The position numbers and the translations under genes are program-made. DNA of 64,000 nt, taken from assembly GCA_022750295.1 (NCBI GenBank), contig JAKIVZ010000002.1:80989-144988 (forward strand), in the 5' to 3' direction. Shown piece after piece: positions 4,227 to 64,000 of the stretch (the first letter of the stretch is position 1; each line of letters begins with the position of its first letter). The notes under the pieces are model-generated. The model did not search any database and was not told the origin of the DNA. It saw nothing but the letters and a program-made list of their open reading frames with translations. This stretch comes from Candidatus Lutacidiplasma silvani. Lineage in GTDB: Archaea; Thermoplasmatota; Thermoplasmata; Lutacidiplasmatales; UBA184.

Positions 4227-4232
4227 ACTAAG

Positions 4233-5616: not shown

Positions 5617-5626
5617 GAGGACGTCG

Positions 5627-7632: not shown

Positions 7633-7648
7633 AGGGGGAACCGAACCG

Positions 7649-9352: not shown

Positions 9353-9373
9353 CGCCGACTAGGAACGCAACCA

Positions 9374-9949: not shown

Positions 9950-9979
9950 CCGGCCCCTCGGTCGGGATCGGAGAGGAAG

Positions 9980-45134: not shown

Positions 45135-45156
45135 GCGCTCCCGGAGAGACGGATCG

Positions 45157-47358
45157 ATGACGCACGTCCGAGCCGAGCTGGCGGCCGCCATTCCCGGCAT
45201 GATGAAGAACCTCGACCAGATCCGGAACATTGGGATCGTCGCCCACATCCATCACGGGAAGACGACCCTCTCCGACAACCTCCTCGCCGCGGCGGGGATG
45301 ATCTCCAACGACCTCGCGGGCAAGCAGCTCTACCTCAACTTCGACGAGCAGGAGCAGGCGCGCCTGCTCACGATCAACAACGCGGACGTCACGATCGTCC
45401 ACGAGTACGAGAACCAGCGGTATCTGATCAACCTCATCGACACCCCCGGGCACGTCGATTTCGGCGGCGACGTCACGCGCGCGATGCGGGCGGTCGACGG
45501 CGCGGTCGTCGTCGTCTGCGCCGTCGAGGGGGTCATGGCCCAGACGGAGACGGTGCTCCGCCAGGCGCTCCGCGAGAAGGTCAAGCCGGTCCTCTTCATC
45601 AACAAGGTCGACCGCGCGATCAAGGAACTCAAACTGACCGCCGACTCGATGCAGAAGCGGTTCACGACCATCATCACCGAGGTCAACGAGCTCATCCGGC
45701 GGATGGCGCCCGACGAGTTCGTCGACGAGTGGTCGGTCGACCCGCGGGACGGCTCGGTCGCCTTCGGTTCGGGGTACGAGAACTGGGCGATCAGCATCCC
45801 CTACATGCTGAAGACCGGCGTGAAGTTCCCGGACATCTTCGACTTCGTCTCCACCGGCCGCTCCCGCGAGATCGCGCAGCGGGCCCGGATCAACGACGTC
45901 GTCTTCGACATGGTCGTCAAGCACTTGCCGGCCCCGAAGGTCGCGCAGCGCTACCGGATCCCCAACATCTGGCGTGGCGACCCGAAGTCGACCGTCGGGG
46001 TCGCGATGTCCGACACGAACGCCGAGGGCCCCACCACGTTCATGGTCACCGACATCACCATGGACCCGAACGCGGGCGAGATCGCCACGGGGCGCGTGTT
46101 CTCCGGTCGGCTCGTCAAGGGGATGGAGCTCAACGTCGTCGGGACGAAGATCAAGAACCGCGTCCAGCACGTTTCCCTGTTCATGGGCCCCGAGCGCCTC
46201 ATGGTCGAGGAGGTCCAGGCCGGCAACATCGCCGCCGTCATCGGCCTCACCGACGCGTTCGCCGGGACGACGATGTCGAACGCCCCCGACATGGTCGCGT
46301 TCGAGGAGATCCGTCACGTCTCCGAGCCGGTCGTCACCGTCGCCATCGAGCCGAAGCACATGGGGGACCTCCCGAAGCTGATCGAGACGATGCGGAAGGT
46401 CGGCAAGGAGGACGCGAGCCTCAAGGTCGAGATCAACCAGGAGACCGGCGAGCATCTCCTGTCGGGGATGGGCGAGCTCCACCTGGAGATCACCCAGTAC
46501 CGGATCATCAACGACTACAAGGTCGAGATCACCTCGTCAAAACCGATCGTCGTCTACCGGGAGACCGTCAAGGCCCCGGGGGGTCCGTTCGAGGGGAAGT
46601 CCCCGAACAAGCACAACAAGTTCTACTTCGAGGTCGAGGCGCTGCCGGCGGCGGTCGTCGACGCGATCCGCGAGGGCGAGATCCCGCAGGGGAAGTCGTT
46701 CAAGGACACGAAGACGCTCGTGACGAAGATGGAAGCGCTCGGCATCACGCGCGACGAGGGCCGGGGGATCGTCGCCGTCGACGGGACGAACATCCTGTTC
46801 GACGTCACGAAGGGGATCCAGAACCTCAACGAGACGATGGACCTCGTCGTCGACGCGTTCAAGGAGGCGATGAACCGAGGACCGCTCGCGAACGAGAAGG
46901 TCTACGGCCTGAAGGTCCGCCTCGTCGACGCGAAGCTCCACGAGGACTCGATCCACCGCGGTCCCGCGCAGACGATCCCCGCCGCCCGGTCGGGCGTGTA
47001 CGGCGCGATGTGCCTCGGCGGCCGGGTCCTCCTCGAGCCGCTCCAAAAGGTCACGGTCAACGTCCCGCAGGAGATCCTGAGCGGCGCGACGCGCGAACTC
47101 CAGCGCCGACGGGGCGAGATCCTCGACATGACGAACGTCGGCGACCTGCAGACGGTCGTCGCGAAGGTCCCGGTCGCCGAGATGTTCGGGTTCGCCTCGG
47201 ACATCCGGAGCGCGACCGCCGGGAAGGTCCTCTGGTCGACCGAGTCGCTCGGCTTCGAGGTCATCCCGACCGAGCTGCAGACGCCGGTCGTCTCCGAGAT
47301 TCGCCAGCGGCGCGGGCTCAAGCCCGAGCCGTACGACGCGGCGTACTACTCCGGCTGA
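45157..47358 (+). CDS. fusA: translation elongation factor 2
   Basis: GTPase G1-G4 motifs (AHIHHGKTTL, DTPGHVDF, NKVD); 733 aa, typical aEF-2. Confidence 0.95.
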   Translation: MTHVRAELAAAIPGMMKNLDQIRNIGIVAHIHHGKTTLSDNLLAAAGMISNDLAGKQLYLNFDEQEQARLLTINNADVTIVHEYENQRYLINLIDTPGHVDFGGDVTRAMRAVDGAVVVVCAVEGVMAQTETVLRQALREKVKPVLFINKVDRAIKELKLTADSMQKRFTTIITEVNELIRRMAPDEFVDEWSVDPRDGSVAFGSGYENWAISIPYMLKTGVKFPDIFDFVSTGRSREIAQRARINDVVFDMVVKHLPAPKVAQRYRIPNIWRGDPKSTVGVAMSDTNAEGPTTFMVTDITMDPNAGEIATGRVFSGRLVKGMELNVVGTKIKNRVQHVSLFMGPERLMVEEVQAGNIAAVIGLTDAFAGTTMSNAPDMVAFEEIRHVSEPVVTVAIEPKHMGDLPKLIETMRKVGKEDASLKVEINQETGEHLLSGMGELHLEITQYRIINDYKVEITSSKPIVVYRETVKAPGGPFEGKSPNKHNKFYFEVEALPAAVVDAIREGEIPQGKSFKDTKTLVTKMEALGITRDEGRGIVAVDGTNILFDVTKGIQNLNETMDLVVDAFKEAMNRGPLANEKVYGLKVRLVDAKLHEDSIHRGPAQTIPAARSGVYGAMCLGGRVLLEPLQKVTVNVPQEILSGATRELQRRRGEILDMTNVGDLQTVVAKVPVAEMFGFASDIRSATAGKVLWSTESLGFEVIPTELQTPVVSEIRQRRGLKPEPYDAAYYSG

Positions 47359-47460
47359 ACGTCGCTCCCGCGCCTTGCGGAAGCGCCCCGGGCCGGGACT
47401 CCCCCTCGAGGGGCGGATTCGCCCGAGCCGAAGATCGATCCGCCGACCGGTCCGGAGTGC

Positions 47461-48027
47461 CTACGCGCGCGGCGACCGGTCCAGCGTCCGCTGGCCCTTG
47501 GGCCGGGGCCCGTCCGACGACTTCGACTTGAGGGGCCAGGCCCCTTCCCGGTCGAGGAGCCAGCGCTTCCGCCAGAGTCCGAGCCCAAAACCGGTCAGGT
47601 CCCCGTCGTTGCCGACGACCCGGTGACAGGGAATGATGATCGGGGCCGGGTTCCGGTGCATCGCGCCCCCGACAGCCCGCGCCGCCCCAGAGTGGCCCGC
47701 GCGCTTCGCGAGCTCGCCGTAGGTCACGGTTTCGCCGGCGGGGACCCGGAACAGCTGCCGCCAGACCGCGCGGTCGAACTCCGAACCGGTCAGCGGGGAG
47801 GCATCGACGTCGAACGTGACCCGGTCCCCGCGGAAGTACTCCGCGAGCTGCGACGGCGGGGACCCCTTTTGGAACGGCGCCTTCCGCTGATGAGCCCCGT
47901 CGGGGATCCCGGTCTGGCTCGTCCCGCGCTCGAGAAGGTCCACGATGTGGACTTTATCGCCCTCGTAGACGACCCGGAACGTGCCGATGGGGGTTGGGAC
48001 CTCGGCGAACTCGACCTGGGCCTCCAT
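47461..48027 (-). CDS. ogt: methylated-DNA-protein-cysteine methyltransferase
   Basis: IPCHRVV active-site motif. Start assigned to the internal ATG (MEAQVEF). Confidence 0.8.
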   Translation of the reverse strand: MEAQVEFAEVPTPIGTFRVVYEGDKVHIVDLLERGTSQTGIPDGAHQRKAPFQKGSPPSQLAEYFRGDRVTFDVDASPLTGSEFDRAVWRQLFRVPAGETVTYGELAKRAGHSGAARAVGGAMHRNPAPIIIPCHRVVGNDGDLTGFGLGLWRKRWLLDREGAWPLKSKSSDGPRPKGQRTLDRSPRA

Positions 48028-48253
48028 GGAGGGGGCGACGACAACCCGGGATATCTCCGTTCGCCCGCGACTCGCGATTCCCGGCAGACCCGCCGCGCGA
48101 ACGCCGGCGGGCCCCGCGGGCCGGCCGTGGTCGGCGGCGTCCCCGACGGCGATTTCTCCATGACCGCCGGCGTTGAGCGCCGGGGGACCGAGACGATTCC
48201 GTCCGTTTAAGGTGAGTTTACCGCCATTCATTTTCCTACCTTAATTCACGAGT

Positions 48254-48682
48254 ATGCGGCCACGGCACGACGAGCATTGCTATCGGTGCGGCTACGTTTG
48301 GACGCCTCGCCGATCCCGGATCCGAATCTGCGCCCGAGGCAAGTCTCCGTACTTCTGGCTCCCGAAAATTCGGGTCCCGACGCGGGGCTCCGGCCTCGGG
48401 ATTGAGGACGCGATCGGTCCGAAACGGAAGGTGGTCCTTCGGCTGGCTCGCCGGTATGGGGCGACGAACGTACGGGTGTTCGGGTCGGTCGCCCGACATG
48501 GAGCCTCGCACGACAGCGACATCGACCTCCTCGTCGACCCGATCCGAGAGGAATCGTATCGGCCGATCGACCTCGCCCTCTCCTTGACGGCGGCGCTGGG
48601 GCGGAGGGTCGATCTCGTCCGGGAACGGTCGCTCGTCTGGCTCGTCCAACCCCAAGTCGTCGCCGAGGCCGTGCCGCTGTGA
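48254..48682 (+). CDS. minimal nucleotidyltransferase (MNT antitoxin-type) with an N-terminal Cys-containing extension
   Basis: GSVARHGASHDSDIDLLVD nucleotidyltransferase motif (GS...D.D). The N-terminal HCYRCGYVW...RICARG may be a zinc ribbon. Confidence 0.6.
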   Translation: MRPRHDEHCYRCGYVWTPRRSRIRICARGKSPYFWLPKIRVPTRGSGLGIEDAIGPKRKVVLRLARRYGATNVRVFGSVARHGASHDSDIDLLVDPIREESYRPIDLALSLTAALGRRVDLVRERSLVWLVQPQVVAEAVPL

Positions 48683-49065
48683 GGACAGCCGCCGACTCTC
48701 CGGTCACGAACCGGACGTTCGTTGCCCTCGGGATCGAGCACCTCGAGGCCGCGGTCCGCTACGGGCAGCTCGGAAAGCGGGCGTTCTTCGCCGACAAGAG
48801 TCCGATCGTATTCGTCGCGGTCGAGAGCGAGCTCCGAAAGGCGTACGAGTCGCTGAACAAACTTGGGCCAACGGCTCGTCGGGCCCACCCCACACTTCCG
48901 TTCGACCGGATGGCGGAGATCCGCCGGGTCCTGACCCACGACTACGCGGGGGTCGACCGTGAAGACGTGCAGAAGATGGTCACCCAAGAAGCGCCCTCGT
49001 TGCTCCGCCAACTCTCGAAGTTGAAGCTCCCCAAGGAGGGAGCCACGGCGCCGACGACCCCCTAG
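48679..49065 (+). CDS. HEPN-domain (DUF86/HepT-like) RNase toxin
   Basis: R-x4-H-x-Y motif (RRVLTHDY); overlaps the MNT stop (ATGA). Confidence 0.6.
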   Translation: MRTAADSPVTNRTFVALGIEHLEAAVRYGQLGKRAFFADKSPIVFVAVESELRKAYESLNKLGPTARRAHPTLPFDRMAEIRRVLTHDYAGVDREDVQKMVTQEAPSLLRQLSKLKLPKEGATAPTTP

Positions 49066-49099
49066 TCCGCGCGGACTTCGGCCGCCTCGGCGTGTCCCG

Positions 49100-49774
49100 C
49101 TACGAGAGCCCGGTGGACGTGATCCGGAACTCGGCGGACGCCTCGCCGAGAGACCGGTGCTTGACGAGGACCGCCCGCCGGCGGGCGCCGCCCAGTCGAT
49201 CGATCCGCACGACCGTTTTCGCGGCGTGGTTGACGAACGAGCCGCCGAGCGGCTCGAGGTCGCCCGTGCGCTGGTTCCGCCACACCTGATTGGTGAATAG
49301 GACCGGGAGATGGGACGCGATCGCCGTCGCGACGAGCTCGGCCAGCTCCCGGCCCAGCGCCTGGCGGCCGGCGTCCTCCTCATCGCTCGAGAGCGTGAGC
49401 CGGTAGTAGAACGTCGCCGAATCCAGGACGATCAGGCCGACGGGGCGCTTCCCGTCGCGGGCCAGCGAGCACGCGGCGCTGACCGCCGACGTCTGTTCGG
49501 CGAGGCTCTTCGGGGTCGCGAGGAGGAGTCGCTGGAGGACCTGCTCGACGTGGCCGTGGGCGATCGCCTCGAGGCGGTCGACGCTCACCCCCTCGGTGTC
49601 GATGTAGCAGACCCACCGGTCGGCGAGGGCGAGCCGGGTCGCGGCCTCCAGGCAGACGAGGGTCTTCCCCGAACCCCCCTCCCCGTAGAGCTCGGTGAGC
49701 CCGTCGGTCTCGAGCCCCCCGCCCAGGAGCTGGTCGAGGGGGCCGACGCCGGTCGGGCAGCGGTCGGCCGGCAT
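49100..49774 (-). CDS. radB: DNA repair and recombination protein RadB (RecA-superfamily ATPase)
   Basis: Walker A GEGGSGKT; about 224 aa RadB architecture. Confidence 0.8.
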   Translation of the reverse strand: MPADRCPTGVGPLDQLLGGGLETDGLTELYGEGGSGKTLVCLEAATRLALADRWVCYIDTEGVSVDRLEAIAHGHVEQVLQRLLLATPKSLAEQTSAVSAACSLARDGKRPVGLIVLDSATFYYRLTLSSDEEDAGRQALGRELAELVATAIASHLPVLFTNQVWRNQRTGDLEPLGGSFVNHAAKTVVRIDRLGGARRRAVLVKHRSLGEASAEFRITSTGLS

Positions 49775-49825
49775 CCGAGCGGGACGTCCGTCGACGGCTA
49801 AAAGCGAACGGGCGCCGGCGGACGG

Positions 49826-51166
49826 TCAACCGATGGGGTACGACGTCCCGAGCTCGGGAGACTCGGTCCGCTTCGCCCAGCCGACGAACGCCTCGGGATG
49901 CTCGGTGTGCACGGGGAACACGGTCCCGGGAGCGACCTCGTGGACGATCTGTTCGAGCTCCGGCCCGGAGGCGTGCCCGGACGCGTGGTACTGGTGGAGG
50001 GAGAGCCCGAAATGGTCGAGCCAGCTGTGGAGCATTTGGTCGTTGAGGTCGTCCTCGCTGAACGGCTCGGACATCGAACGGATGAACGGGCTCCCGGGGA
50101 CCGGTCGCAGGTCGATGAGCTCGGCGAAGTGGCTCATCTCGAGGGAGAGGAGGAGCTCCTTCGCGTGGGTGCGGACCCACGGCGCGTCGACCGCCGCCTC
50201 GAGGAACGGCCGCTCCCAGGGAAAGTACCGGGACTTGGGCCGTCGGTACACGTGGAGAGTGTCGGTCTCGCCGGGGACCGGGATGGGGATCGTGGGGAAC
50301 GTGGCGTGCGTCGCGCTCAGGAGGTACGCCGTCCGGAGCGAGACGACGAGGGAGCGTCCCGCGGCGACCGCCGCCGCGTGAAGGGTGGCGAACCGGTCGA
50401 GGTCCCTCGGGTAGCAGCTGACGAGCGCGAGCCGGTCGGTCGTCCCGAGGAGCGAATCGACGCCGGACCGGACCCCCTCCTCCGAGAACTGCCGGCGGGG
50501 GTCCGGCCCGGCGCGCGTTCCTTCCGTGATGAGGGCGACCGGGTGCTCGGCGGCCGCGGCGGCGACGAACGCCCGGGTCTCCGCGGCCCGCGGGCCATGC
50601 TGGCGAAAGTCGCCGGTGTAAACGACCGTCCCTTCCGACGTCCGGATGAGGAATCCGCTCGCGCCGGGGATCGAATGGTCGACGGGGAGCGGGACGACCT
50701 CGATCCGCCCGATCTTCACCGGGGTCCCGTACGCCATCGTCCGCCAATCGTGCTCGCCGTACCGGGTGAACGTGCTCGCTTCGATCGCCTCGAGGAGCGA
50801 GCGGGTCCCCTCGCTCGCGTAGACGGGGATCCGGGGGTCGACGAGGTTCAGGTGCCCCGCGTGGTCCATGTGGGCGTGGCTGACGAAGACCCCCTGAAAC
50901 TCGGGGTCGGAGGGTCGGAGGTCCGAGCCGGCGAGCGCCTCCTCCGAGTAGAGGCCGTCGACCCGGGGGAGAAGCCCGAACTCGAGCCGGTCCTTGACTG
51001 GGGAGCTGGGGCGGGGCTGAAGGTACTGCCCCCAGTACTGTTCCCAGACCGGGGAGAACGACGGACCGAAGTCGATGAGGATCCGGTCCGGGCCGTCCTC
51101 GATGACGACCTTGTTCCCGCCGATCTCGCGGACTCCGCCGAGGAATCGTACCGTCGGGCGCCCCAT
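49826..51166 (-). CDS. metallo-beta-lactamase/beta-CASP ribonuclease (archaeal RNase J-like)
   Basis: HAHMDHAG motif and beta-CASP region; 446 aa. Confidence 0.75.
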   Translation of the reverse strand: MGRPTVRFLGGVREIGGNKVVIEDGPDRILIDFGPSFSPVWEQYWGQYLQPRPSSPVKDRLEFGLLPRVDGLYSEEALAGSDLRPSDPEFQGVFVSHAHMDHAGHLNLVDPRIPVYASEGTRSLLEAIEASTFTRYGEHDWRTMAYGTPVKIGRIEVVPLPVDHSIPGASGFLIRTSEGTVVYTGDFRQHGPRAAETRAFVAAAAAEHPVALITEGTRAGPDPRRQFSEEGVRSGVDSLLGTTDRLALVSCYPRDLDRFATLHAAAVAAGRSLVVSLRTAYLLSATHATFPTIPIPVPGETDTLHVYRRPKSRYFPWERPFLEAAVDAPWVRTHAKELLLSLEMSHFAELIDLRPVPGSPFIRSMSEPFSEDDLNDQMLHSWLDHFGLSLHQYHASGHASGPELEQIVHEVAPGTVFPVHTEHPEAFVGWAKRTESPELGTSYPIG

Positions 51167-51214
51167 CGGCCTCCGAGACCGCCGGGGCGGATGACGGTTG
51201 GTCCGGGTGCGGGC

Positions 51215-51349
51215 CCTAGCGGGCCTTCAGGACCTTCTTCACGTTCGGATGCTCCTTCGTGAAGATCTTCCCGCCGCAATTGTCGCAGCGGACGCCGAAG
51301 AGGTTCGAGTCGCTCGGGAGCGCCTCCCCGCAGCGGATGCACCGGAACA
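51215..51349 (-). CDS. rpoP: DNA-directed RNA polymerase subunit P (Rpb12/RPABC4 homologue), 44 aa
   Basis: Hand translation gives MFRCIRCGEALPSDSNLFGVRCDNCGGKIFTKEHPNVKKVLKAR*, a C4 zinc ribbon. Too short for the ORF track. Confidence 0.75.
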
Positions 51350-51374
51350 TATCGACGTCCTCGGGCCGACTCGA

Positions 51375-51656
51375 TTAAGCGTTTGCGGTCGCCGTCGCGG
51401 TGGCCGCGTCCTTCTCCGACCGGGTGATCGGGGGGGCGGGCGTGAACAGGTACGCCCCGCTCGCGAATTTGACGCCGCAGCGCCGGCACTGGAAGACGCC
51501 GCTCGCGACCCTTCGGACCGTCACCGTCGCGCACTTCGGGCAGGCGGCGGCGAGCTCGCGGGCCCGGTCGATCTCGAGGACCCGGCGGCGGATCCGGATC
51601 CCGTAGCGGGCTCCCATCCAGCCGGTGTTGCCGACCTTCTTCGTGCGCTTGCTCAT
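51375..51656 (-). CDS. rpl37ae: 50S ribosomal protein L37Ae (eL43)
   Basis: KVGNTGWMGARYG plus a C-x2-C...C-x2-C zinc ribbon. Confidence 0.85.
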   Translation of the reverse strand: MSKRTKKVGNTGWMGARYGIRIRRRVLEIDRARELAAACPKCATVTVRRVASGVFQCRRCGVKFASGAYLFTPAPPITRSEKDAATATATANA

Positions 51657-51662
51657 GGGTCC

Positions 51663-52445
51663 CTACGCTCCCGCGGCCAGCTTCCGCATCCGGTCGCCGT
51701 GCTGGAACGCCCGCTCCGCGAGGGATTTGACGTCTTCGGGGGAGAAGGCGCCGATCAGCCCCTTCTGCATGGCGACGACGTTGGCGAGCTCGTCGGTCGC
51801 GATCGTGAGACGGCCCTGGCAGGCGAGCTCCTCATCGAACGACGGGTCGACGACGATCGCGTCCCCGAGCCGGACGAACGTCGTCTCGACCGGTTGGTGC
51901 TGGAGCGCGAGCGGGGAGTCCGACTCCGCGATCCCGAACCGCTTCGCCGGCAGGGTCGCGTGGGCCAGCGCCGTCAGCGCGGCGAGCGACCCGGCGTCGA
52001 TCAGGTTGCCGGAGTGGTCGATGACGTGGACGTCGACGTAGCAGACCCAGGTCTTCTCCCCCGGGGTAACGCAGAGCTTCGTGAGGTCGATCGCCTCGGC
52101 CGCGCGGATCGCCCGGTCGATGACGCGCGACACCTCGATCGCCCGCGGGTGCGGGGGACCGGGCTCGAACGACGGGTTGGAGAGCGGCACGAGCTCGGCG
52201 TTGGTCGTGAGGACCCCCGCGTTCGGGGTGTCCGGGAACGGCTTTCCGGGCTCGAGCTTGACGCCCGCGACGACCGCGGTCGCGCCGATCCGGACGAGGG
52301 CCGAGCCGTCCGCGGAAGCGACGAACCCGGGCTCGACCGTGACCTTCCGGTACTCGTCGAGTCCCCGGCCATCGAGGCGCCGCCCCTGGCGGGCGAGGTC
52401 GAGGACGTGGGTGCCGAGGATCTCGGCGGTGACTTCGTTGCTCAT
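51663..52445 (-). CDS. rrp42: exosome complex component Rrp42
   Basis: RNase PH-like fold without the catalytic GxxDGR motif; length and position follow rrp41. Confidence 0.85.
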   Translation of the reverse strand: MSNEVTAEILGTHVLDLARQGRRLDGRGLDEYRKVTVEPGFVASADGSALVRIGATAVVAGVKLEPGKPFPDTPNAGVLTTNAELVPLSNPSFEPGPPHPRAIEVSRVIDRAIRAAEAIDLTKLCVTPGEKTWVCYVDVHVIDHSGNLIDAGSLAALTALAHATLPAKRFGIAESDSPLALQHQPVETTFVRLGDAIVVDPSFDEELACQGRLTIATDELANVVAMQKGLIGAFSPEDVKSLAERAFQHGDRMRKLAAGA

Positions 52446-53197
52446 TGGGCCGCTCCTTCGGACGGGCCGCCCAACTGGTAGCGGTCGCGGAGCGCCTGCT
52501 TCATCTTCTCGTAGATCGCGCGGCAGCCGACGACGCCCAGGTCGAGCGATTCGGAGAGCTCCGGACCGGTCATGTGCCCCTCCATCTGGAGGAGGACGAG
52601 CCGGCCGGACTGGGGGACGAGCGCCATCGGGAGATCGGCCTCGCCGAAGTTGTCCTCTTCCTTCTTGAGGTCGAGGGCGATCTTGCCGGCGACTTTCCCG
52701 ACCGCGACGGCCGGGAGGAGGTCGACCATCGGGATCCCGGCATCGGCGAGCGCCACCGAGGCGGCGACGACCCCCGCGCAGCGGGTCCCGGCGTTCGCTT
52801 GCAGGACCTCGATGTAGATGTCGATGCTCGTGCGGGGGAACTCCTCGACGAAGATCACCGACTCGAACGCCTCGGCGATCACCTTGCTGATCTCCTGGGA
52901 CCGGCGGTCGAGGCCGGGGCGTTTCCGCTCATCGACGGAGAACGCCGCCATGTTGTACTTGCACTGGACGATCGCCTTGTTGTTCTGCTGCAGGTGGCGG
53001 GGATGGACCTCGCGCGGGCCGTAGACGGCCGCCATCACCTTGTTCGCTCCCCACTCCACGAACGCGGACCCGTCGGCCTGGTGCAACGCCCCGGCCACGA
53101 TCCGCATCGACCGCAATTCGTCGAGTTTCCGTCCGTCGATCCGCTTGCCGTCCGGGCTCAGCAGGACCGGGACCTCCTTCGCTCCTACGCTTCCCAT
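52442..53197 (-). CDS. rrp41: exosome complex exonuclease Rrp41
   Basis: RNase PH-like domain with IDGRKLDELR / DGR motif. Confidence 0.9.
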   Translation of the reverse strand: MGSVGAKEVPVLLSPDGKRIDGRKLDELRSMRIVAGALHQADGSAFVEWGANKVMAAVYGPREVHPRHLQQNNKAIVQCKYNMAAFSVDERKRPGLDRRSQEISKVIAEAFESVIFVEEFPRTSIDIYIEVLQANAGTRCAGVVAASVALADAGIPMVDLLPAVAVGKVAGKIALDLKKEEDNFGEADLPMALVPQSGRLVLLQMEGHMTGPELSESLDLGVVGCRAIYEKMKQALRDRYQLGGPSEGAAQ

Positions 53198-53224
53198 GGT
53201 ACTGTCTCCGTATGGAATGGAATC

Positions 53225-54058
53225 CTAGAATGGCGCCGGGCCGGCGTCGTCGTCCGGCTCGTCGCCGCCGTCGATCGGGCTCGGGGGCTCGAACGGGGGC
53301 CGCGTGGGGGTCGGCATCGGCGCGGCGTCCCCGGGCTGGCGCGTCGAACCGAGATAGCCGGCGACCCGGTCGGTCAGCCCCGAGCGCTGGCCCTCCTCCT
53401 CGATGAGCCGGAGCGCCTCGCGGACCCGTTGCATCCCTTCGGGGGTCCCGTCGACCCAAACCCGTCCGTTCTGGCCGACGGCGATCCGGCATCCGGTCTC
53501 GTTGGTGAGCATTTGGATCATGGAACCACTGCGGCCAATGACGCGGGGGACCTTCGCGGGCGACATGGTGACGACGGTCCCGCCGTCGACCTTCCCCAAG
53601 TCGTCGCCGAGCATCGTGACGCCGATCCGACCGGTCGGGTCGATGTTCTCGATCGCGACCACGACCGTGTCGCCCACGTGGAGGTACTGGCCGCACTCGC
53701 CGACCTCGATCTTCCACGGGGTTCCGGTCATGTGGAGCGGCGCCCACCGGGGCGCCCCGATGTCGAGGAGCCAGAATGTGGTCTGGACGTCGGTGACCGT
53801 CCCCACGACGATGTCCTGGGGCTTCGGAATATACCGGCCGGAGAGGGGGATGACCCGAACGACGGGGGGGCGGCGCGAGAGGAGGCCGAGGACCGACGCG
53901 TACGTGCGCCCATCGACGCGGTACGTACCCGGGCCCGGTTGGAGCCCGTGAACGTCGATCTCCTCCCCGGGGAGAACTAACGTGCGTTCCCCGTCCGATC
54001 GAGGGGGAACGCCTCCTGGGCCACGGCCACGGTGGCCGCGGCGATGTCCATGTCCCAT
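53225..54058 (-). CDS. rrp4: exosome RNA-binding subunit Rrp4 (S1 + KH)
   Basis: S1-like region followed by KH motif (VIGRSGSMIQ). The start may lie a few codons downstream of 54058. Confidence 0.8.
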   Translation of the reverse strand: MGHGHRRGHRGRGPGGVPPRSDGERTLVLPGEEIDVHGLQPGPGTYRVDGRTYASVLGLLSRRPPVVRVIPLSGRYIPKPQDIVVGTVTDVQTTFWLLDIGAPRWAPLHMTGTPWKIEVGECGQYLHVGDTVVVAIENIDPTGRIGVTMLGDDLGKVDGGTVVTMSPAKVPRVIGRSGSMIQMLTNETGCRIAVGQNGRVWVDGTPEGMQRVREALRLIEEEGQRSGLTDRVAGYLGSTRQPGDAAPMPTPTRPPFEPPSPIDGGDEPDDDAGPAPF

Positions 54059-54094
54059 TGCTGCTCGTGCACCGGGCCGCGCGACTTGGGCCGG

Positions 54095-54793
54095 TTATTT
54101 AACGAGCGCGGTCTCGGCGGCGCCCTTCGTGCGCGCGCTGAGCTTCTCGTAGAGTTCGGTCTGCACTCCGGCGGGGATTTCGATGACCGCGCTCCACGCT
54201 CCGTCCGGCAACCACTGCTCGTCCGCGAGCTTCCCGATCCCCTTCAGCTCCCCGATGACCCGGGGATAGTACTGGGCCGGGACCTTCACCCGGACCCGGA
54301 CCGTGTCGAGCCGGATCGGGAGGAGCGGCCGAAGCTTCGTGATGATCTCGGCGACCTGCTGGTCGGCGGGCCGGAACGGGTCGATGTGGATCTTCGCCTC
54401 CACCATCGCCGCCTCGATCCGGGCCGGCGGGTGCGGGGCCCCCGTCTGGGGATTCATCGCGTTCCGGGCGATCGTGGCAACGATCTGCTTGTGCTTCGCG
54501 GCCTGGAGCTCGTGGCGTTGGTCGGTGGTGACCTGGACCTCGCCGTTCAGGATGATCTGCCGGGCGATCTCGGCGAGGTCGCGGGTGTGGAACGTCTTCT
54601 CGAGATGTTCGGCCGAGATCTTGTCGCCCTTCTTCGCGTCCTTGAACACCTGGTCGAGAGCGAGCTTGTCGGAGAGGTCCACGGTCCGTCCGTCCTTGAG
54701 CGCCTGAACGGCGACCGGGTCGACGAGGACCTCGAAGCGGGATCCGCCCTTCTCCCAGCGCGCGACGACGGCGTCCTCGACCGCGACCATCAA
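54095..54793 (-). CDS. sdo1: ribosome maturation protein SBDS/Sdo1
   Basis: FEVLVDP N-terminal FYSH domain motif; 232 aa. Confidence 0.8.
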   Translation of the reverse strand: MMVAVEDAVVARWEKGGSRFEVLVDPVAVQALKDGRTVDLSDKLALDQVFKDAKKGDKISAEHLEKTFHTRDLAEIARQIILNGEVQVTTDQRHELQAAKHKQIVATIARNAMNPQTGAPHPPARIEAAMVEAKIHIDPFRPADQQVAEIITKLRPLLPIRLDTVRVRVKVPAQYYPRVIGELKGIGKLADEQWLPDGAWSAVIEIPAGVQTELYEKLSARTKGAAETALVK

Positions 54794-54815
54794 TGCCCTC
54801 GGCGGGGCGCGCCGC

Positions 54816-55565
54816 TCACGCGCGGGCGGCCTTGCCCCCCGGTCCGACCGGGGGAAGTCGCGCGACGTACTTCTGGGTTTCCTCGACGGAGAGCCGGTGG
54901 CTCCCGTTGGTCCGGTCGAGCGTCAGGACCTCGACTTGGCCGAGCGTCCCCGACTCGTCGAGCGACTGGCGAAGCCCCTCGAGCGCGAGGACGACCGCCG
55001 CGTCGACGTCCATCTTGGGGCGGTGCTTCTGCTCGAACAGCTCCATCACGGGGCCCTTGTTCCCGCCGGTCGAGGTCGCCTTGAAGCTCGTCAGTGAGCC
55101 GGACGGCTCGGTCTCGTAGAGATGCACGCCGGTGTCGTCGAATCCACCGACGAGGAGGGCGGTCCCGAACGGCCGTACGCCGCCGAACTGGGTGTACTGT
55201 TGCTTGTAGTCGCAGATCCGACGGACGAGGAGTTCGACGGAGACCGGCTCGGTGTAGGTGACCCGGTTGATCTGGGCGGCGAGCCGCGCGTAGTCCACCA
55301 GCACGCGGGCGTCGGCGACCAAGCCCGCGGTCGCACACGCGATGTGCTCGTCGATGAGATGGATCTTCTCGAGGCTCGCGGGTTCGGCGAGCTTGGGGTT
55401 CGGGATCCGGCGGTCGGCGACCAGGACGACTCCGTCCTCGTAGCAGACCCCCGCGGTCGTCGCGCCCCGACGCACCGCCTCCCGGGCGTACTCGACCTGG
55501 AACAGGCGCCCATCGGGCGAGAACACGGTGATGGCCCGGTCGTACGCCATCTGGCCGGGTTGCAT
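54816..55565 (-). CDS. psmA: proteasome subunit alpha
   Basis: MQPGQMAYDRAITVFSPDGRLFQVEYAREAV matches the T. acidophilum alpha-subunit N-terminus almost residue for residue. Start set at the third ATG (55565), consistent with a TATA box at 55612-55619. Confidence 0.9.
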   Translation of the reverse strand: MQPGQMAYDRAITVFSPDGRLFQVEYAREAVRRGATTAGVCYEDGVVLVADRRIPNPKLAEPASLEKIHLIDEHIACATAGLVADARVLVDYARLAAQINRVTYTEPVSVELLVRRICDYKQQYTQFGGVRPFGTALLVGGFDDTGVHLYETEPSGSLTSFKATSTGGNKGPVMELFEQKHRPKMDVDAAVVLALEGLRQSLDESGTLGQVEVLTLDRTNGSHRLSVEETQKYVARLPPVGPGGKAARA

Positions 55566-55611
55566 CTCCATCGACGGTTCCTCCGAGGCGGCCCGCCCCA
55601 CGGAGGCCCGG

Positions 55612-58672: not shown

Positions 58673-59713
58673 ATGCCCGCGATGGGGCGAAGTGCGGCGG
58701 CCGAGAGCCGGACTGGACCGCGCGACCGCGCGATCGAGCGGGTCCGACAGCTCCTGGAGAGCGCGGGATTCTTCGTCACCGACGCCCACCATGTCCGCCC
58801 GAGCAGCTTCGACCTGATGGCCCGGCGCGACTCGCAACTGCTCATCGTCAAGATCCTGAAGAACATCGACGCGCTCGACCCCGGCGAAGCGGCCCGGATC
58901 GCCGAGCTCGGCCGACAGTTCCCGGCCAAAGTCCTCGTCATCGGTCACACCTCTGGGGGGAACGAGCTCGAACCCGGCGTGGTCTACAGCCGGTACGGCG
59001 TGCCCATCGTCGTCGAGGAGAGCCTGCAGGAGTACCTCCAGAAAGGGATCCCGCCGTTCCTGTTCAGCGGCCCGGGCGGAATCTTCGCCCGCGTCGACGG
59101 CCCGCGGCTCCGCGCCCTCCGGGAGGAGCGGCGGATCTCGCTCGGGGCCCTCGCCTCGATCGCTGGAGTCTCGCGACGGACCATCCAACTCTACGAGGAC
59201 GGCGCGGGGGCCGAGGTCGAGATCATCGAGCGCCTCGAGCGGTATCTCTCCGAGCCGATCGCCCGGCCCCTCGACCTGTTCGCCGACGAGCGGCCGAGCC
59301 CCGCGGACGGAGCGCCCGGTACCCCGGCCGATCCCGACCCCGCCGAGACGCCTCGGCGGCTTCGTCCGACGGGGGACGCGCTCCGCGACGGAGTCGTCCG
59401 CCAGCTCAATGGGATGGGCTGGGAGGTCACCGTGACGATCCGCTGCCCGTTCGACGCGCTCTCCCACGCCGACGCGCGGGGCGCCGACCGAACGTTGCTC
59501 ACCTCGGTGGGGACGCTCCGCACCGCGCAGAGTCGGGCCGACCTTCTCCTCCAACTCGCCCGAGTCGCCGAGGGCCACGCGATGTTCGTCGTCCGCGAGG
59601 CGACCGACCGCACCGACATCGAGGGTCTTCCGATCCTCTCGGTCCGGGAGCTCCAACGCCACCGGGACCGCGGCGAACTCATCGACGTCATCGAGGAGCG
59701 GGGCGCCGGGTGA
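58673..59713 (+). CDS. archaeal XRE-type HTH transcriptional regulator (COG1395-like)
   Basis: Central HTH (ISLGALASIAGVSRRTIQLYEDG) flanked by conserved N- and C-domains. Start at the internal ATG 58673. Confidence 0.55.
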   Translation: MPAMGRSAAAESRTGPRDRAIERVRQLLESAGFFVTDAHHVRPSSFDLMARRDSQLLIVKILKNIDALDPGEAARIAELGRQFPAKVLVIGHTSGGNELEPGVVYSRYGVPIVVEESLQEYLQKGIPPFLFSGPGGIFARVDGPRLRALREERRISLGALASIAGVSRRTIQLYEDGAGAEVEIIERLERYLSEPIARPLDLFADERPSPADGAPGTPADPDPAETPRRLRPTGDALRDGVVRQLNGMGWEVTVTIRCPFDALSHADARGADRTLLTSVGTLRTAQSRADLLLQLARVAEGHAMFVVREATDRTDIEGLPILSVRELQRHRDRGELIDVIEERGAG

Positions 59714-60378
59714 TCGAGCGCGTCCTCAACGGCGTGACGGTCCTCGGGGCGGTCCGAGGCCTCGTCGCCGAGGGGGACAGCGTACGGAATCGGCTCGAAC
59801 GGATGACACCGTCGGCCGTCGGAATCGCAATCTCGCCGGACGAGTTGAAGGGGCTGCGCGAGTACTTCGTCTCTCCCGAGACCGAACCGGTCGTCCCGCT
59901 CGCCCCGACCGAGGCCGGCGAGGTCCGCGGCCTCGCGCGCTACGGGGAGGTCGGCGTCCCGAACCCGGTCGCGGTCGAGGCGATCCGCTGGTCGGACGGC
60001 GCCGGCGTTGAGGTCGAGCCGCTCGACCCGTCGGACGACGACTACTCCGAATGGTTCGCGGACACGATCAGTTACGTCGAGCTCGTCCGCCGGACGCTGC
60101 GGGAGCGCCGGGTCGTCAAGCGCCCCCCCACCCCGCCGACGGCCGACGAATTCGCCATGAGTTGGAGTCGGACGATCAACAAGGGAGCGGGTTCCCGGCG
60201 CCTCATCGCGCGTCGCGACGCGGCCGTGATCGAGGGGCTCGGTCGGTTGCGCGCCCGCCACGCGTCCGTCGTGCTCCTCGTCGACCGCGAACGGTTCGAC
60301 GGCGTCGTGACGCTCCTCAACGACGGGTTCGCCTCCGTCCGGACGCCGGTCGGCGATTCGTATCGTGCGAGCCGTTAA
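59710..60378 (+). CDS. hypothetical protein, weakly TraB-family-like with degenerate motifs
   Basis: GTG start overlapping the regulator stop (GTGA). VTVLGAVRGL and VVLLVDRERFDG resemble TraB GTAHV/GxxHxxG positions but lack the His residues. Confidence 0.35.
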   Translation: MIERVLNGVTVLGAVRGLVAEGDSVRNRLERMTPSAVGIAISPDELKGLREYFVSPETEPVVPLAPTEAGEVRGLARYGEVGVPNPVAVEAIRWSDGAGVEVEPLDPSDDDYSEWFADTISYVELVRRTLRERRVVKRPPTPPTADEFAMSWSRTINKGAGSRRLIARRDAAVIEGLGRLRARHASVVLLVDRERFDGVVTLLNDGFASVRTPVGDSYRASR

Positions 60379-61948
60379 GAACCGCCTCGCCCCCATGGGA
60401 CTCCCTAGGTTCCTCTCGATGCCCCCTCTGGCGTCCGAAAGCCGGAAGAGCCGGCCCTACGCCGTGGTGGACGTCGGCTCGAACACGGCGCGGCTCGCCG
60501 TCTTCGAGGTCACCCCGGCCGGCGGGTTGCGGGCGGCGTTCGAGTCGAAGGAGGTCCCGCGTCTTGGCGAGGGGACCGGCGAAGACCGCTCCCTCTCGGA
60601 CGCCGCGGTCCGTCGCGGGGTCGAGGCGCTCGCGCGATTCCGCCGACGGCTGGCGGCCGCCGGCGACCCTCCCGCGATCTCGGTCGCTACGAGCGCCGTG
60701 CGGGACGCACCGAACGGCGCCGAGTTCGTCGCCCGGGTCCGAGCGGCGACCGGCTTCAACTTGCGGATCCTCTCGGGCGAGGAGGAGGCGCGGTACGCCT
60801 ACCTCGGCGTCGCCGGCGCGTGGCACCTCCACTCCGATACGATCGTCGACCTGGGCGGCGGCTCGCTCCAGGCGGTGCGCACGAAGGGCGGCGAAATCGA
60901 AGCGGCGGGGAGCGGTCCCCTCGGAGCCCTGCGACTCACCGAGGCGTTCCTCGAACACGACCCACCGAAGCAGCGAGAGTTGGAGCGGCTGCGGACCCAC
61001 GTGCGGGCCGAGCTTCGCAAGCTCCGCGGGGCCGGGGTCGTCCGCGGTCAGCTCTACGGCGTCGGCGGGACGATCCGGTGTCTGGCCCGCGTCGGGGTCG
61101 ACCTCACGAACTATCCGCTCGAGCGGGTCCACGGGTATCCGCTCACCCGACGGACGCTCGCCCGCGTGGAGCGGGTCCTGCTCGGACTCGACGCGGACGA
61201 GCGACGCCGGATCCCCGGGGTCGGCGGGCACCGGGCCGACGTCATCGTCGCGGGCGCGATCGTCGTCGACGAGCTGATGCGGCGGACCGAAGCCGATTCG
61301 CTCGTCGTCAGCGCGACCGGGATCCGCGAGGGGATCGCGATCGAGCACGCCGGGATCCGGGTGCCGGCCGCCTCCGAGACGCTCGCCTGGCGCTCGGTCA
61401 CCGCCGAGGCGAGCGCGCTCGGGTTCTCGCTCCCCCATGGCGAAGCGGTCCGGGGGGTTGCGGTCGAGCTGTTCGAGGCGCTCGCCCCGAGGTTCGGATG
61501 GGGCGCGAGCGAACGGCTCTCCCTCGACGTCGCGGCGTGGATGCACGACGTCGGATGGACGATCGACCCGTGGCGCCACGCGAAGCACTCGGCGTACGTT
61601 CTCCGCCACGCCGCGATCCATGGTCTGACCCACCGGGAAGTGGCGATCGCGAGCATCGTCGCCTACCTCCACGAAGGCGACCCGTTCCCGGCCCCCTGGA
61701 AGGAGACGTTCCACGAGATCCTCACCGACGACGACCTCGAGACCTCCCGCCGGCTCGGGGCGCTCGTCTTCTTCGCCGAGGCGCTCGACGGGGCGCGGCC
61801 CGGGATCTCGATCCCGCGCGGCTCCGACCGTCTGGTTCTGACCCCCGAAGCGGGCCGGGGCGCCCGCCCGTCCGACCGAACCGTCCAACGGCTCCGGAAG
61901 CCGACGCGTCGCGCCCTTGGGCTGGAGGTCGAGCTGAATGGCCGCTGA
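60365..61948 (+). CDS. ppx: Ppx/GppA-family exopolyphosphatase/pppGpp phosphohydrolase with a C-terminal HD-like domain
   Basis: VVDVGSNTARLAVFE (the ASKHA phosphate-1 motif), DLGGGS phosphate-2 and C-terminal HD-like helices. Confidence 0.8.
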   Translation: MRAVKNRLAPMGLPRFLSMPPLASESRKSRPYAVVDVGSNTARLAVFEVTPAGGLRAAFESKEVPRLGEGTGEDRSLSDAAVRRGVEALARFRRRLAAAGDPPAISVATSAVRDAPNGAEFVARVRAATGFNLRILSGEEEARYAYLGVAGAWHLHSDTIVDLGGGSLQAVRTKGGEIEAAGSGPLGALRLTEAFLEHDPPKQRELERLRTHVRAELRKLRGAGVVRGQLYGVGGTIRCLARVGVDLTNYPLERVHGYPLTRRTLARVERVLLGLDADERRRIPGVGGHRADVIVAGAIVVDELMRRTEADSLVVSATGIREGIAIEHAGIRVPAASETLAWRSVTAEASALGFSLPHGEAVRGVAVELFEALAPRFGWGASERLSLDVAAWMHDVGWTIDPWRHAKHSAYVLRHAAIHGLTHREVAIASIVAYLHEGDPFPAPWKETFHEILTDDDLETSRRLGALVFFAEALDGARPGISIPRGSDRLVLTPEAGRGARPSDRTVQRLRKPTRRALGLEVELNGR

Positions 61949-62666
61949 AGCCGTCCCGGCCCTCCCCGAGGGCACGACCCCGTCGGGGAGCCGGCTCGCC
62001 GGCCGTCTCCTCGTGTTCGAGGGCCTCGACGGCTCCGGGAAGTCGACCCAGGCCCGGCTGCTAGTGAAGTGGCTGCAGGCGCGCGGCTACCGGGTGTTCT
62101 TCACCGAATGGAACTCGTCCGAGCTGATCAGCGACACGATCCGTCGCGGCAAGAAGAAGAACCTCCTGACCCCGACCACCTTCTCCCTGCTCCACGCCAC
62201 CGATTTCGCCGACCGGCTCGAGCGGCACGTGATCCCGCCGCTGCGGGCGGGCTACGTCGTCATCTGCGACCGGTACGCGTACACCGCGTTCGTGCGCGAC
62301 GCCGCGCGGGGGTGCGACCCGGACTGGGTGCGCAGCCTCTACGGGTTCGCGCCGAAACCGGACAAGGTGTTCTACTTCCGCGTCCCGGTCGCCACGTCGC
62401 TCGCGCGAAAGCTCGCGAGCCGCCAGAAGATCTCCTACTACGAAGCCGGAATGGACCTCGGGCTCGCCGACGACCTCATCGAGTGCTACGAGAAGTTCCA
62501 GTCGCGGCTCAAGCGCGAGTACGAGCGGCTCGTCCCGACCGACGGGTTCGTCGTCATCGACGCGGACAAGCCGGTCGAGACCGTCCTCAACCAGGTCCGC
62601 CGCGAGGTGCGACCGCTCTTGACCGGGTTCCCGAAAGCGGAGGCGCTCGTCCATGCCGACGAATAG
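61938..62666 (+). CDS. thymidylate-kinase-like P-loop kinase, paralogue A (canonical P-loop)
   Basis: FEGLDGSGKSTQ P-loop and CDRYAYT (DRY motif); it also carries a YYEAGMDL insert shared with the downstream paralogue. Confidence 0.75.
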   Translation: MAAEAVPALPEGTTPSGSRLAGRLLVFEGLDGSGKSTQARLLVKWLQARGYRVFFTEWNSSELISDTIRRGKKKNLLTPTTFSLLHATDFADRLERHVIPPLRAGYVVICDRYAYTAFVRDAARGCDPDWVRSLYGFAPKPDKVFYFRVPVATSLARKLASRQKISYYEAGMDLGLADDLIECYEKFQSRLKREYERLVPTDGFVVIDADKPVETVLNQVRREVRPLLTGFPKAEALVHADE

Positions 62667-63360
62667 GACCTACGGGACCAAACTCCCGGGGATGCCCCGG
62701 GACCCGTTTCCCGGGAAGCTGATCGTTCTCGAGGGGGCGGACGGCTCGGGCCGGACGACCGAAGTCGACCTCCTCCGCGAGTGGCTCGAGGTCGAGGGCC
62801 ACCCGGTCGTCGACACCGGACTCCGCCGCTCGTCGCTCCTCAGCGAGCAGATCGAGGAGGCGAAGAAGGGGAACACGCTGAGCGCGACGACCCTCGCACT
62901 CCTCTACGCCGCCGACTTCGCCGACCAGCTCGAGAACAAGATCATCCCGTCGCTTTCGGCGGGGAGCACGGTGCTCGCCGACCGGTACGTCTACACGCTG
63001 ATGGCCCGCGCGATCGTCCGCGGAGCGAGCCGGTCGTGGGCCGAGAAGCTGTACGGGTTCGCCCTCGTTCCCGACCTCACGATCTTCCTCGACGCGAAGA
63101 CCGACATCCTGCTCCACCGCGCGATCGCGAAGTACGGGAGCCTCGACTACTGGGAGAGCGGGATGGACCTCTGCCTGTCCCGCGACCGGTTCGAGAGCTT
63201 CTACCGATACCAGTCGCTGTTGCGCGCGGAGTTCGGCGTGATGGAGAACCGGTACGGGTTCCATCGCGTCGACGCGAATCGGACCCCGACCGGGGTCCAC
63301 CGGGAGACCCGGGACCTCGTCGCCCCGCTGTTCCATCCCGAAGGACGTCGGCGTCGGTAG
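62653..63360 (+). CDS. thymidylate-kinase-like P-loop kinase, paralogue B (P-loop Lys replaced by Arg)
   Basis: LEGADGSGRTT (K to R), LADRYVYT and YWESGMDL; overlaps the paralogue A stop by 14 nt. Confidence 0.7.
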   Translation: MPTNRTYGTKLPGMPRDPFPGKLIVLEGADGSGRTTEVDLLREWLEVEGHPVVDTGLRRSSLLSEQIEEAKKGNTLSATTLALLYAADFADQLENKIIPSLSAGSTVLADRYVYTLMARAIVRGASRSWAEKLYGFALVPDLTIFLDAKTDILLHRAIAKYGSLDYWESGMDLCLSRDRFESFYRYQSLLRAEFGVMENRYGFHRVDANRTPTGVHRETRDLVAPLFHPEGRRRR

Positions 63361-63442
63361 GTCCCCCGTACCCCAGAGGCTCGCGCGGGGACCGACCACG
63401 GTTGGTCGGACCGTTTCGGCGGGCCTTGCCCGACACGGGACG

Positions 63443-63955
63443 TTAGAGTCGTCGACCGACGCGGGTCAGCGCCTTCCGGTCGAGCCGCCAGGCGAGCGTG
63501 CCGCCGCCGGCCCGAATCGCCTTCGGGAACTCGACGGCGGCCGTTCCGGCGCGACCCAACCGAGTGACCGATACCGCATCGCCGGCGATGGCGAGACCCA
63601 CGAGCTCGCCGAGTTGCGGCTCGTGGCCGACGAGCAGGACCGTAGCGCGACGGGTCCCGTCCTCGGCCAATCGTTCGAGGAGAGGCGCGGCGGGGGCCCC
63701 GGGGGCAAGTTCGGGCCAGTCGATCAGTTTCGACCGGACGCCCAGGGTGTTCCGGAGGATCTCCGCCGTGGCGCGGGCGCGGGTCGCGGGGCTGGTGAGG
63801 ATCGTCCCGACCTGGCGCTCCAGGGCCGCGATTCCGGCGGCGGCGTCCCGCGTCTCACGACGACCGTCGCGGGACAACGGTCGCAAGTCGTCGTTCGACC
63901 ACCGTCGGGGGTCGCGCGATTCCGCCGGGCCATGCCGGACAATCAGGAGGCGCAC
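63443..63955 (-). CDS. histidine phosphatase superfamily protein (SixA/phosphoglycerate-mutase-like)
   Basis: LLIVRHGPA (RHG catalytic motif) and LLVGHEPQLG (second His). Confidence 0.7.
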   Translation of the reverse strand: MRLLIVRHGPAESRDPRRWSNDDLRPLSRDGRRETRDAAAGIAALERQVGTILTSPATRARATAEILRNTLGVRSKLIDWPELAPGAPAAPLLERLAEDGTRRATVLLVGHEPQLGELVGLAIAGDAVSVTRLGRAGTAAVEFPKAIRAGGGTLAWRLDRKALTRVGRRL

Positions 63956-63965
63956 GGGGACCGCC

Positions 63966-64000
63966 TCAGTCTTCGGCGTCGAGGATCGCTTCGAGCTTCG
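63966..64000 (-). CDS. 3' end of a gene continuing beyond the window (last 11 codons)
   Basis: Minus-strand reading frame ends ...KLEAILDAED with TGA at 63966-63968. Confidence 0.2.
   Translation of the reverse strand, partial: KLEAILDAED

Follow-up and report, generated by a model that had tools for sequence, protein, structure and literature searches.

A probable PPK3-type polyphosphate-turnover cassette next to a separate gene pair in an uncultured Thermoplasmata archaeon

The question raised by this locus is whether five genes that follow each other on one strand, near the end of a 64,000-nucleotide stretch of Candidatus Lutacidiplasma silvani (contig JAKIVZ010000002.1; the whole stretch is hereafter called the window), constitute a single module devoted to polyphosphate metabolism. 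An earlier note, made from the sequence alone, had proposed such a module for positions 58673-63360, in which a regulator (gene A) and a TraB-like protein (gene B) precede a Ppx/GppA exopolyphosphatase (gene C, hereafter ppx) and two proteins resembling thymidylate kinases (Tmk; genes D and E), the last three genes recalling a polyphosphate kinase system of Sulfolobus. The five open reading frames (ORFs) are present on the + strand exactly there (Table 1). The core of this idea is correct but already published, the Sulfolobus system having been described under the name PPK3 (Hofmann et al., J Biol Chem 2026, PMC12995831; preprint bioRxiv 2024, 10.1101/2024.08.28.610084), and its extension to five genes is refuted by comparative genomics. 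What the window very probably contains, at approximately 60419-63955, is a PPK3-type polyphosphate-turnover cassette of four genes, namely ppx, a catalytic subunit (cPPK3, gene D), a regulatory subunit (rPPK3, gene E) and a convergent sixA-like gene, with A and B forming a separate pair.

In Sulfolobus acidocaldarius, the system is encoded by the operon sixA-ppx-saci_2019-saci_2020-CHAD, in which Saci_2019 is the catalytic cPPK3, without thymidylate (dTMP) kinase activity, and Saci_2020 is rPPK3, an inactive activator (PMC12995831). The holoenzyme (SaPPK3) is an alpha2beta2 heteromer that works reversibly and favours the formation of ATP from polyphosphate and ADP (PMC12995831). PPK3 was reported mainly from Sulfolobaceae, from Nitrososphaeraceae and from a small number of bacteria, its genes lying near ppx, sixA, CHAD and pst genes (PMC12995831). 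Thermoplasmata are mentioned neither in the main text of this article nor in the preprint, while its supplementary Fig. S19 might include them, and nothing was found in the literature joining PPK3 with Thermoplasmata or Lutacidiplasmatales with polyphosphate. The locus had been put forward as a second, phylogenetically distant example of the system; it does not rank second, since Nitrososphaeraceae and scattered bacteria had already been published, and what stands is that the Thermoplasmata are unnamed in the main text.

Two thymidylate kinase-like genes as predicted PPK3 subunits

The Pfam family Thymidylate_kin (PF02223) is matched by D (E-value of 9e-30) as well as by E, and the two proteins share 39% identity, in agreement with their earlier description as Tmk-like paralogs. 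Among structures of the Protein Data Bank (PDB), the best match of D is 2plr/5h70, which corresponds to STK_15430, a cPPK3 homologue of S. tokodaii, with an E-value of 5.5e-60 and 49% identity; true Tmks reach 1.9e-16 at best, i.e. 44 orders of magnitude behind. The same structure is matched by E with 2.5e-36, when true Tmks score ca. 1e-13. Both proteins are thus nearer to the cPPK3 structure (1e-36 to 1e-60) than to bona fide Tmks (1e-13 to 1e-16). At the sequence level, D has 45-49% identity with cPPK3 of Sulfolobaceae, and E has 34-39% with the product of the second gene in the Sulfolobaceae/Desulfurococcales loci.

With canonical Tmks (PF02223/TIGR00041; Saci_0893 and the proteins of Aquifex aeolicus, 5xb2, and Thermus thermophilus, 5x7j), D and E have in common the P-loop fold, the Walker-A and DR(Y/H) motifs and the lid, but they differ from them at four diagnostic columns (F to H, R to F, H to R and Q to D) as well as by their linkage to ppx and sixA and their occurrence as a catalytic/regulatory pair. 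The Walker-A (GSGKST) and CDRY motifs of D are intact, and this protein, which has an isoelectric point of 9.06, also displays TEWNSS and GKKK..LLTP.TFSLLHATDFADR; the RRGKKK patch and the TEWNSS motif are conserved across cPPK3 clades. In the alignment, the Walker-A lysine and the DRX arginine were found in all 57 cPPK3 orthologues, D included, and the four diagnostic columns read H/F/R/D in the same 57, the full signature K/DR/H/F/R/D being identical throughout, whereas most of the 19 canonical Tmks have F/R/H/Q. These columns, which by our own reading of Tmk structures are dTMP-site positions, are replaced in both D and E. The H/F/R/D columns agree with the published statement that the dTMP-binding residues are not conserved in cPPK3 (PMC12995831).

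A neighbor-joining tree (134 sequences, 215 columns, 100 bootstraps) grouped D with the first genes of ppx-linked pairs and apart from the 19 canonical Tmks. The rPPK3 clade, which gathers 55 second genes including E, was monophyletic in 99 of the 100 bootstraps, and the Thermoplasmata subclades were recovered at 100% for cPPK3 and 99% for rPPK3. The first-gene group taken alone had a bootstrap recovery of 24% only, because three odd sequences (L062-L064) are nested inside it.

The alternative, in line with the names given in public records, is that D, E or both are ordinary thymidylate kinases located next to ppx by coincidence. Besides the Pfam match of the two proteins, the NCBIfam equivalog model TIGR00041 (dTMP kinase) scores D at 108.5 bits, above its cut-off of 83.25, so that automated annotation still names it a thymidylate kinase (E, with 81.2 bits, falls below), and the source-named homologues, among those numbered P0002 to P0120, are all called "dTMP kinase". 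This explanation is however very improbable, given the distance in E-value between the cPPK3 homologue and the true Tmks, the diagnostic columns, the lack of dTMP kinase activity of the orthologue Saci_2019, a linkage to ppx and sixA that is kept across archaeal and bacterial phyla, and the replacement of the Walker-A lysine in E. TIGR00041 evidently over-calls PPK3 subunits, and public records systematically misannotate these as dTMP kinase. Based on computed orthology and motif status, D is regarded as cPPK3, the predicted catalytic subunit of a family-3 polyphosphate kinase.

The assignment of E relies on another set of positions. In rPPK3, the absence of activity has been ascribed to the loss of the DRX arginine, and the polyphosphate-binding residues were described as not conserved (PMC12995831). 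The basic GKKK/RR patch of cPPK3 reads AKKG/EE in E, which matches the second of these remarks. As for the first, E has LADRY and hence does not show the replaced DRX arginine by which the paper recognizes rPPK3. This arginine is in fact kept in 51 of the 55 rPPK3 and lost (LADGY) only in L056, L057, L059 and L060, which belong to the Sulfolobales/Desulfurococcales; since it concerns 4 sequences out of 55, its loss is best read from the alignment as a Sulfolobales trait that does not define the family. What all 55 rPPK3 share, those of Sulfolobaceae included, is an arginine in place of the Walker-A lysine (GSGRTT in E). From these sequences the lysine-to-arginine change emerges as the universal hallmark of rPPK3, an observation of our own that is absent from the main text of the PPK3 paper. 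An independent sample was obtained by searching E against 1.84 billion cluster representatives, which returned 192 clusters at an E-value of 1e-30 or below; among the best 150 of these, the R-type P-loop occurred in 76 single-domain sequences, and the DRX arginine was kept in 47 of the 47 that had an R-type P-loop and in which both motifs were readable. In addition, almost everywhere E did better than D as a tblastn query in retrieving the second gene of a locus. Taken together, sequence comparison designates E as rPPK3, a predicted regulatory, pseudokinase-like subunit that would form a heteromer with D and activate it.

The retention of the DRX arginine gives some room to a different view of E, according to which both subunits are catalytically competent outside Sulfolobales, or E is a nucleotide-binding sensor, resulting in two active sites or in allosteric gating by ATP/ADP through E. 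The DRY motif in E and in all but the four Sulfolobales/Desulfurococcales rPPK3, which have DGY, would fit with this, as would a P-loop that is otherwise intact and a nucleotide pocket of which most is kept. In P-loop kinases, however, a lysine-to-arginine change in Walker-A usually abolishes phosphoryl transfer, and this change is invariant in rPPK3, including the Sulfolobus type which is experimentally inactive; the basic patch, moreover, is not conserved in E. A competent or sensing E is therefore considered rather unlikely, and the reading of E as an impaired activator is preferred.

A physical coupling of the two subunits is suggested by natural fusions. In the representative library, P0242 (460 aa) is a cPPK3-rPPK3 fusion, and P0245, P0254 and P0270 (650-696 aa) associate cPPK3 and rPPK3 with a Ppx domain III/HD; the P-loop in the second kinase domain of the fusion proteins is degenerate (GHYQ, GVTH). 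Together with the conserved overlap between the stop of D and the start of E (see below), these fusions are consistent with a physical complex of the predicted subunits. The only Pfam match to PPK2 was a weak one, on the fusion P0245 and under threshold. Another protein, P0046 (407 aa), was first taken as a natural fusion of the two subunits and was not used: its rPPK3 half begins inside the P-loop (…VVNA|VGRSTQ…), so that it is probably a chimeric, truncated or deleted sequence. Finally, two much longer proteins, P0320 (1610 aa) and P0347 (2575 aa), combine an inorganic pyrophosphatase (InPase) domain with a PPK3/Tmk-like domain, P0347 having also an ART-PolyVal ADP-ribosyltransferase domain; both look like polyvalent mobile-element proteins.

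Conservation of the cassette and of genes A and B

The identity of gene C as a member of the Ppx/GppA family, already recognized in the earlier note, is supported by its match to PF02541 (Ppx-GppA N-terminal ASKHA domains; E-value of 2.1e-56) and to domain III (Ppx-GppA_III, PF21447; 1.1e-11); with TIGR03706 it scores 273 bits, below the cut-off of 307. It is accordingly annotated as a putative exopolyphosphatase and is the first gene of the cassette. Downstream of E lies a gene that was overlooked when the module was bounded at 63360. Its product matches His_Phos_1 above the cut-off and the SixA model TIGR00249 with an E-value of 2.2e-19 (69.8 bits for a cut-off of 74.5), and shows the RHG motif of histidine phosphatases (LIVRHGPAE).

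A survey of ppx-tmk-tmk synteny, as had been proposed, was conducted by scanning one genome per species and returned 80 loci. Twenty-four were from metagenome-assembled genomes (MAGs) of Thermoplasmata archaea, with 67-81% identity for D, and many from bacterial phyla (50-59%), besides those of Nitrososphaeraceae (53-56%) and the Sulfolobaceae mentioned above; the rest were ordinary Tmks (29-41%). When the window proteins were used in tblastn, virtually all loci other than the ordinary Tmks had a D-like gene followed by an E-like gene, in most cases together with ppx and frequently with sixA, and the order ppx-D-E is identical in the Sulfolobaceae loci L056, L057 and L060. The linkage is carried by the 24 Thermoplasmata species and, in varied forms, by Sulfolobaceae and Nitrososphaeraceae and by bacteria. 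All 24 Thermoplasmata species genomes retrieved have the cassette, in at least three genomic contexts. In every one of these loci ppx is directly upstream of cPPK3, the overlap between D and E amounts to 8-26 nt wherever both genes are carried, and sixA comes right after rPPK3 in convergent orientation in every locus that is long enough, save L016, in which none was detected, and L026, in which it occurs ca. 4.5 kb further on. The conserved unit therefore consists of four genes, not five: ppx, cPPK3, rPPK3 and the convergent sixA.

When compared to SaPPK3, the window has the same ppx-cPPK3-rPPK3 order, an adjacent sixA-like gene and the overlap between D and E; D carries the same cPPK3 signature, and E falls in the same clade with the same Walker-A replacement. 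Differences reside in the host, which is a high-GC (ca. 70%) uncultured Thermoplasmata archaeon, in the position of sixA, which is convergent and downstream here but upstream on the same strand in Sulfolobus, in the lack of a CHAD gene in the window (one is present in the relative L026), and in the DRX arginine that the rPPK3 of the window retains and that of Sulfolobales has lost. In L026 (MAG REEB18), the CHAD gene (PF05235; E-value of 3e-15; 9739-10743, + strand) follows rPPK3 as in Sulfolobus, and the ca. 4.5 kb inserted ahead of sixA include AlkZ-like, PKD-domain and glyoxalase genes. Another locus, L022 (DAIDCO010000074.1), is recorded under "bacterium isolate clean3188"; its cassette is 68-73% identical to that of the window with a Thermoplasmata-type synteny, and the MAG is probably mislabelled.

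Whether A and B belong with this unit was examined next to the genes that flank them. Relatives of the window were fetched through homologues of gene B (contexts L085-L089), and L085/L086 and L088/L089 have exactly its layout. To the left, this comprises two RNase PH genes, Rrp4, SBDS, proteasome alpha (-), DUF255 (+), a phosphoesterase (-), A and B; to the right, ppx, D, E, sixA (-), AAA_18 (-), an unknown gene, an aminoacyl-tRNA synthetase and an amidohydrolase. The fifth context, L087 (JGI 3300033402, 552-kb contig; 8001-9211), represents an empty site: the flanks are the same on both sides, and the AAA_18 gene comes immediately after B, with no cassette in between. Conversely, in L001 the cassette is flanked by an Nre-family gene and an aminotransferase, and the remaining Thermoplasmata loci have neither this context nor that of the window. 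The cassette appears to have been relocated between genomic sites and, in the sublineage of the window, sits between B and the AAA_18 gene. A search for direct or inverted repeats around it (60200-64000) revealed no insertion scars, the only meaningful match being a 134-nt segment, 71% identical, that reflects the paralogy of D and E. In the spacer between E and sixA (63355-63450), a terminator hairpin was looked for, and folding was no better than that of shuffled sequences (z = -0.43).

A single five-gene operon, in which A would regulate polyphosphate metabolism and B would serve the kinase complex as an extra subunit or an accessory factor, had been suggested by the position of the genes on the same strand and by their tight packing. 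The overlaps invoked were in part verified. The GTGA shared by A and B (59710-59713) is read directly in the sequence, the stop of ppx overlaps the ATG of D by 11 nt (61938-61948), and D and E overlap by 14 nt (62653-62666) for the longest ORF. The fourth one, 14 nt between B and ppx (60365-60378), requires a GTG start at 60365 and is doubtful. In-frame candidates for the ppx start are this GTG and the ATG codons at 60395 and 60419; in the nearest relatives for which genes have been called, the stop of B and the start of ppx are 13 nt (L085) or 40 nt (L088) apart, and comparison of the N-terminal ends with L088 and L085 indicates that an ATG equivalent to 60419 is conserved. The latter is preferred on these sequence grounds, the start remaining uncertain.

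With B and ppx overlapping or at most 40 nt apart, and with the order A-B-ppx-D-E found also in L026, L085 and L088, a five-gene operon has some arguments in its favour. It is nevertheless unlikely. A and B were upstream of ppx in only one (L026) of the 24 Thermoplasmata species loci, the other 23 having no A-B within 10 kb, and they accompany the cassette in none of the bacterial, Nitrososphaeraceae or Sulfolobaceae loci; A-B occurs with the same flanks and no cassette in L087; and homologues of B are confined to Thermoplasmata, when PPK3 is much wider. The claim of a dedicated regulator and an additional subunit is consequently abandoned. The 4-nt overlap of A and B is kept with or without the cassette, which argues for their independence from it: they form a separate, translationally coupled pair beside the exosome/SBDS/proteasome genes and are neighbours of the four-gene cassette, not members.

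As to their products, the designation of A as a COG1395-type regulator with an XRE helix-turn-helix is supported by NCBIfam PRK04140 (E-value of 5.7e-76; residues 17-343 score 255.6 bits, slightly short of the cut-off of 263) and by Pfam HTH_31, above cut-off; the annotation of its orthologues in L085, L087 and L088 gives PDDEXK_19 and HTH_31. Its start is either at 58673 or at a second ATG, 58682. Gene B gave no match with NCBIfam, nor with Pfam even at E-values up to 10. Its family has 334 detectable homologues, and those bearing a source name among the 120 listed are all from Thermoplasmata or Lutacidiplasmatales and "hypothetical". An AlphaFold2 model built from 38 sequences (pLDDT 90.4, pTM 0.85) places the protein in the TraB/ChaN/erythromycin-esterase-like fold group, so that the predicted structure upholds the TraB-like label at the level of the fold, with identities of ca. 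11% to the TraB/PrgY/GumN (PF01963), ChaN and erythromycin-esterase-like proteins. Membership in TraB/PrgY/GumN itself was ruled out by the absence of a Pfam match and of the GTxH motif, replaced by G-x-V-R-G. A true TraB/PrgY/GumN gene exists elsewhere in the window (20827-21561, +; PF01963, E-value of 2.2e-14), and no profile similarity was detectable between its product and the gene B family (hhalign, probability of 2%).

Features of the locus and of the window

The features of the locus are given in Table 1. At the other end of the window, positions 302-10903 encode COX2, TatC, a Rieske protein, cytochrome b, COX1, a CtaA-like haem A synthase and a UbiA-family prenyltransferase. To judge from this cluster of an aerobic respiratory chain, the Thermoplasmata host probably lives under aerobic or microaerobic conditions. 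A 360-aa ORF that lies within the same region (1898-2980, +) has as sole match an N-terminal domain of MazE/AbrB type (SpoVT-AbrB). Closer to the locus, the stretch 44044-55601 encodes ribosomal proteins S12 and S7, EF-2, an Ogt-like methyltransferase, a RadB/Rad51-like ATPase and a beta-CASP/metallo-beta-lactamase RNase, followed by an RNase PH subunit, Rrp4, SBDS and proteasome alpha, i.e. the exosome/SBDS/proteasome genes which the A-B pair adjoins.

Table 1. Genes of the locus, with positions in the window and the basis of each assignment
Feature	Position	Strand	Assignment and basis
Gene A	58673..59713	+	COG1395-type regulator, XRE helix-turn-helix; PRK04140 and HTH_31
Gene B	59710..60378	+	Thermoplasmata-specific protein, TraB/ChaN/erythromycin-esterase-like fold (model)
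ppx (gene C)	60419..61948 (longest ORF 60365-61948)	+	Ppx/GppA; PF02541
Gene D, predicted cPPK3	61938..62666	+	PF02223; 2plr/5h70 match
Gene E, predicted rPPK3	62653..63360	+	Second-gene clade; Walker-A Lys to Arg
sixA-like histidine phosphatase	63443..63955	-	TIGR00249, His_Phos_1, RHG motif; convergent with rPPK3

Predicted working and significance of the cassette

Besides the TIGR00041 score of D, a few points weigh against the interpretation of the locus as a PPK3 cassette. Polyphosphate synthesis, phosphorylation of ADP and the lack of dTMP kinase activity have been shown only for Saci_2019/2020, the activity of the Thermoplasmata proteins being predicted. The ca. 45 ORFs of the window that were scanned with Pfam contained neither a third Tmk nor PPK1 or PPK2, a result whose scope is these 64 kb. 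The DRX arginine, to the loss of which the paper attributes inactivity, is present in E, which might for this reason retain some activity or nucleotide binding. Finally, with a gap of 40 nt or less between B and ppx, transcription initiated at the A-B promoter may read through into the cassette in the lineage of the window.

By homology with the Sulfolobus system, D and E would assemble as a heteromer, which is alpha2beta2 in that organism. D, in which the Walker-A lysine and the DRX arginine are intact, would reversibly move phosphate between ATP/ADP and polyphosphate, and formation of ATP from polyphosphate and ADP would be favoured except at a high ATP/ADP ratio. E, presumably impaired in catalysis by its Walker-A replacement, would activate D via oligomerisation, and Ppx would trim polyphosphate to inorganic phosphate, so that the cassette as a whole would buffer phosphate and energy. 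An active P-loop unit that is associated with an inactive paralog promoting oligomerisation is also encountered in the two-domain class II PPK2 (P. aeruginosa PA3455), an analogy that was drawn by the PPK3 paper (PMC12995831); PPK2 belongs however to another P-loop kinase family, and the PPK3 subunits of the window are separate polypeptides.

A more elaborate scheme may be offered tentatively, as one that is possible without being probable. In this scheme, the rPPK3 found outside Sulfolobales, that of the Thermoplasmata included, would be a nucleotide-binding pseudokinase that senses ATP/ADP and sets the switch between polyphosphate synthesis and ATP regeneration, within a relocatable cassette that in the window could have come under the transcriptional control of A-B.

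The four-gene cassette adds modest points to what was known, namely a large Thermoplasmata clade, a hallmark for rPPK3, the relocation of the cassette, natural fusions and the misannotation as dTMP kinase. It removes the tempting deduction of a dedicated regulator and of an extra subunit from gene order, and it exposes the mislabelling of PPK3 subunits both in public annotation and by an NCBIfam equivalog model. The known picture of how PPK3 works is unchanged. The definition of the regulatory subunit is refined, the Walker-A lysine-to-arginine change being universal among the sequences compared and loss of the DRX arginine confined to Sulfolobales. With these data, the uncultured Thermoplasmata join the PPK3 family as its third major lineage of archaea; the sequences retrieved from them represent no fewer than 24 genomes at species level and over 120 clusters at 90% identity, from samples that appear to be mostly soil and peat.

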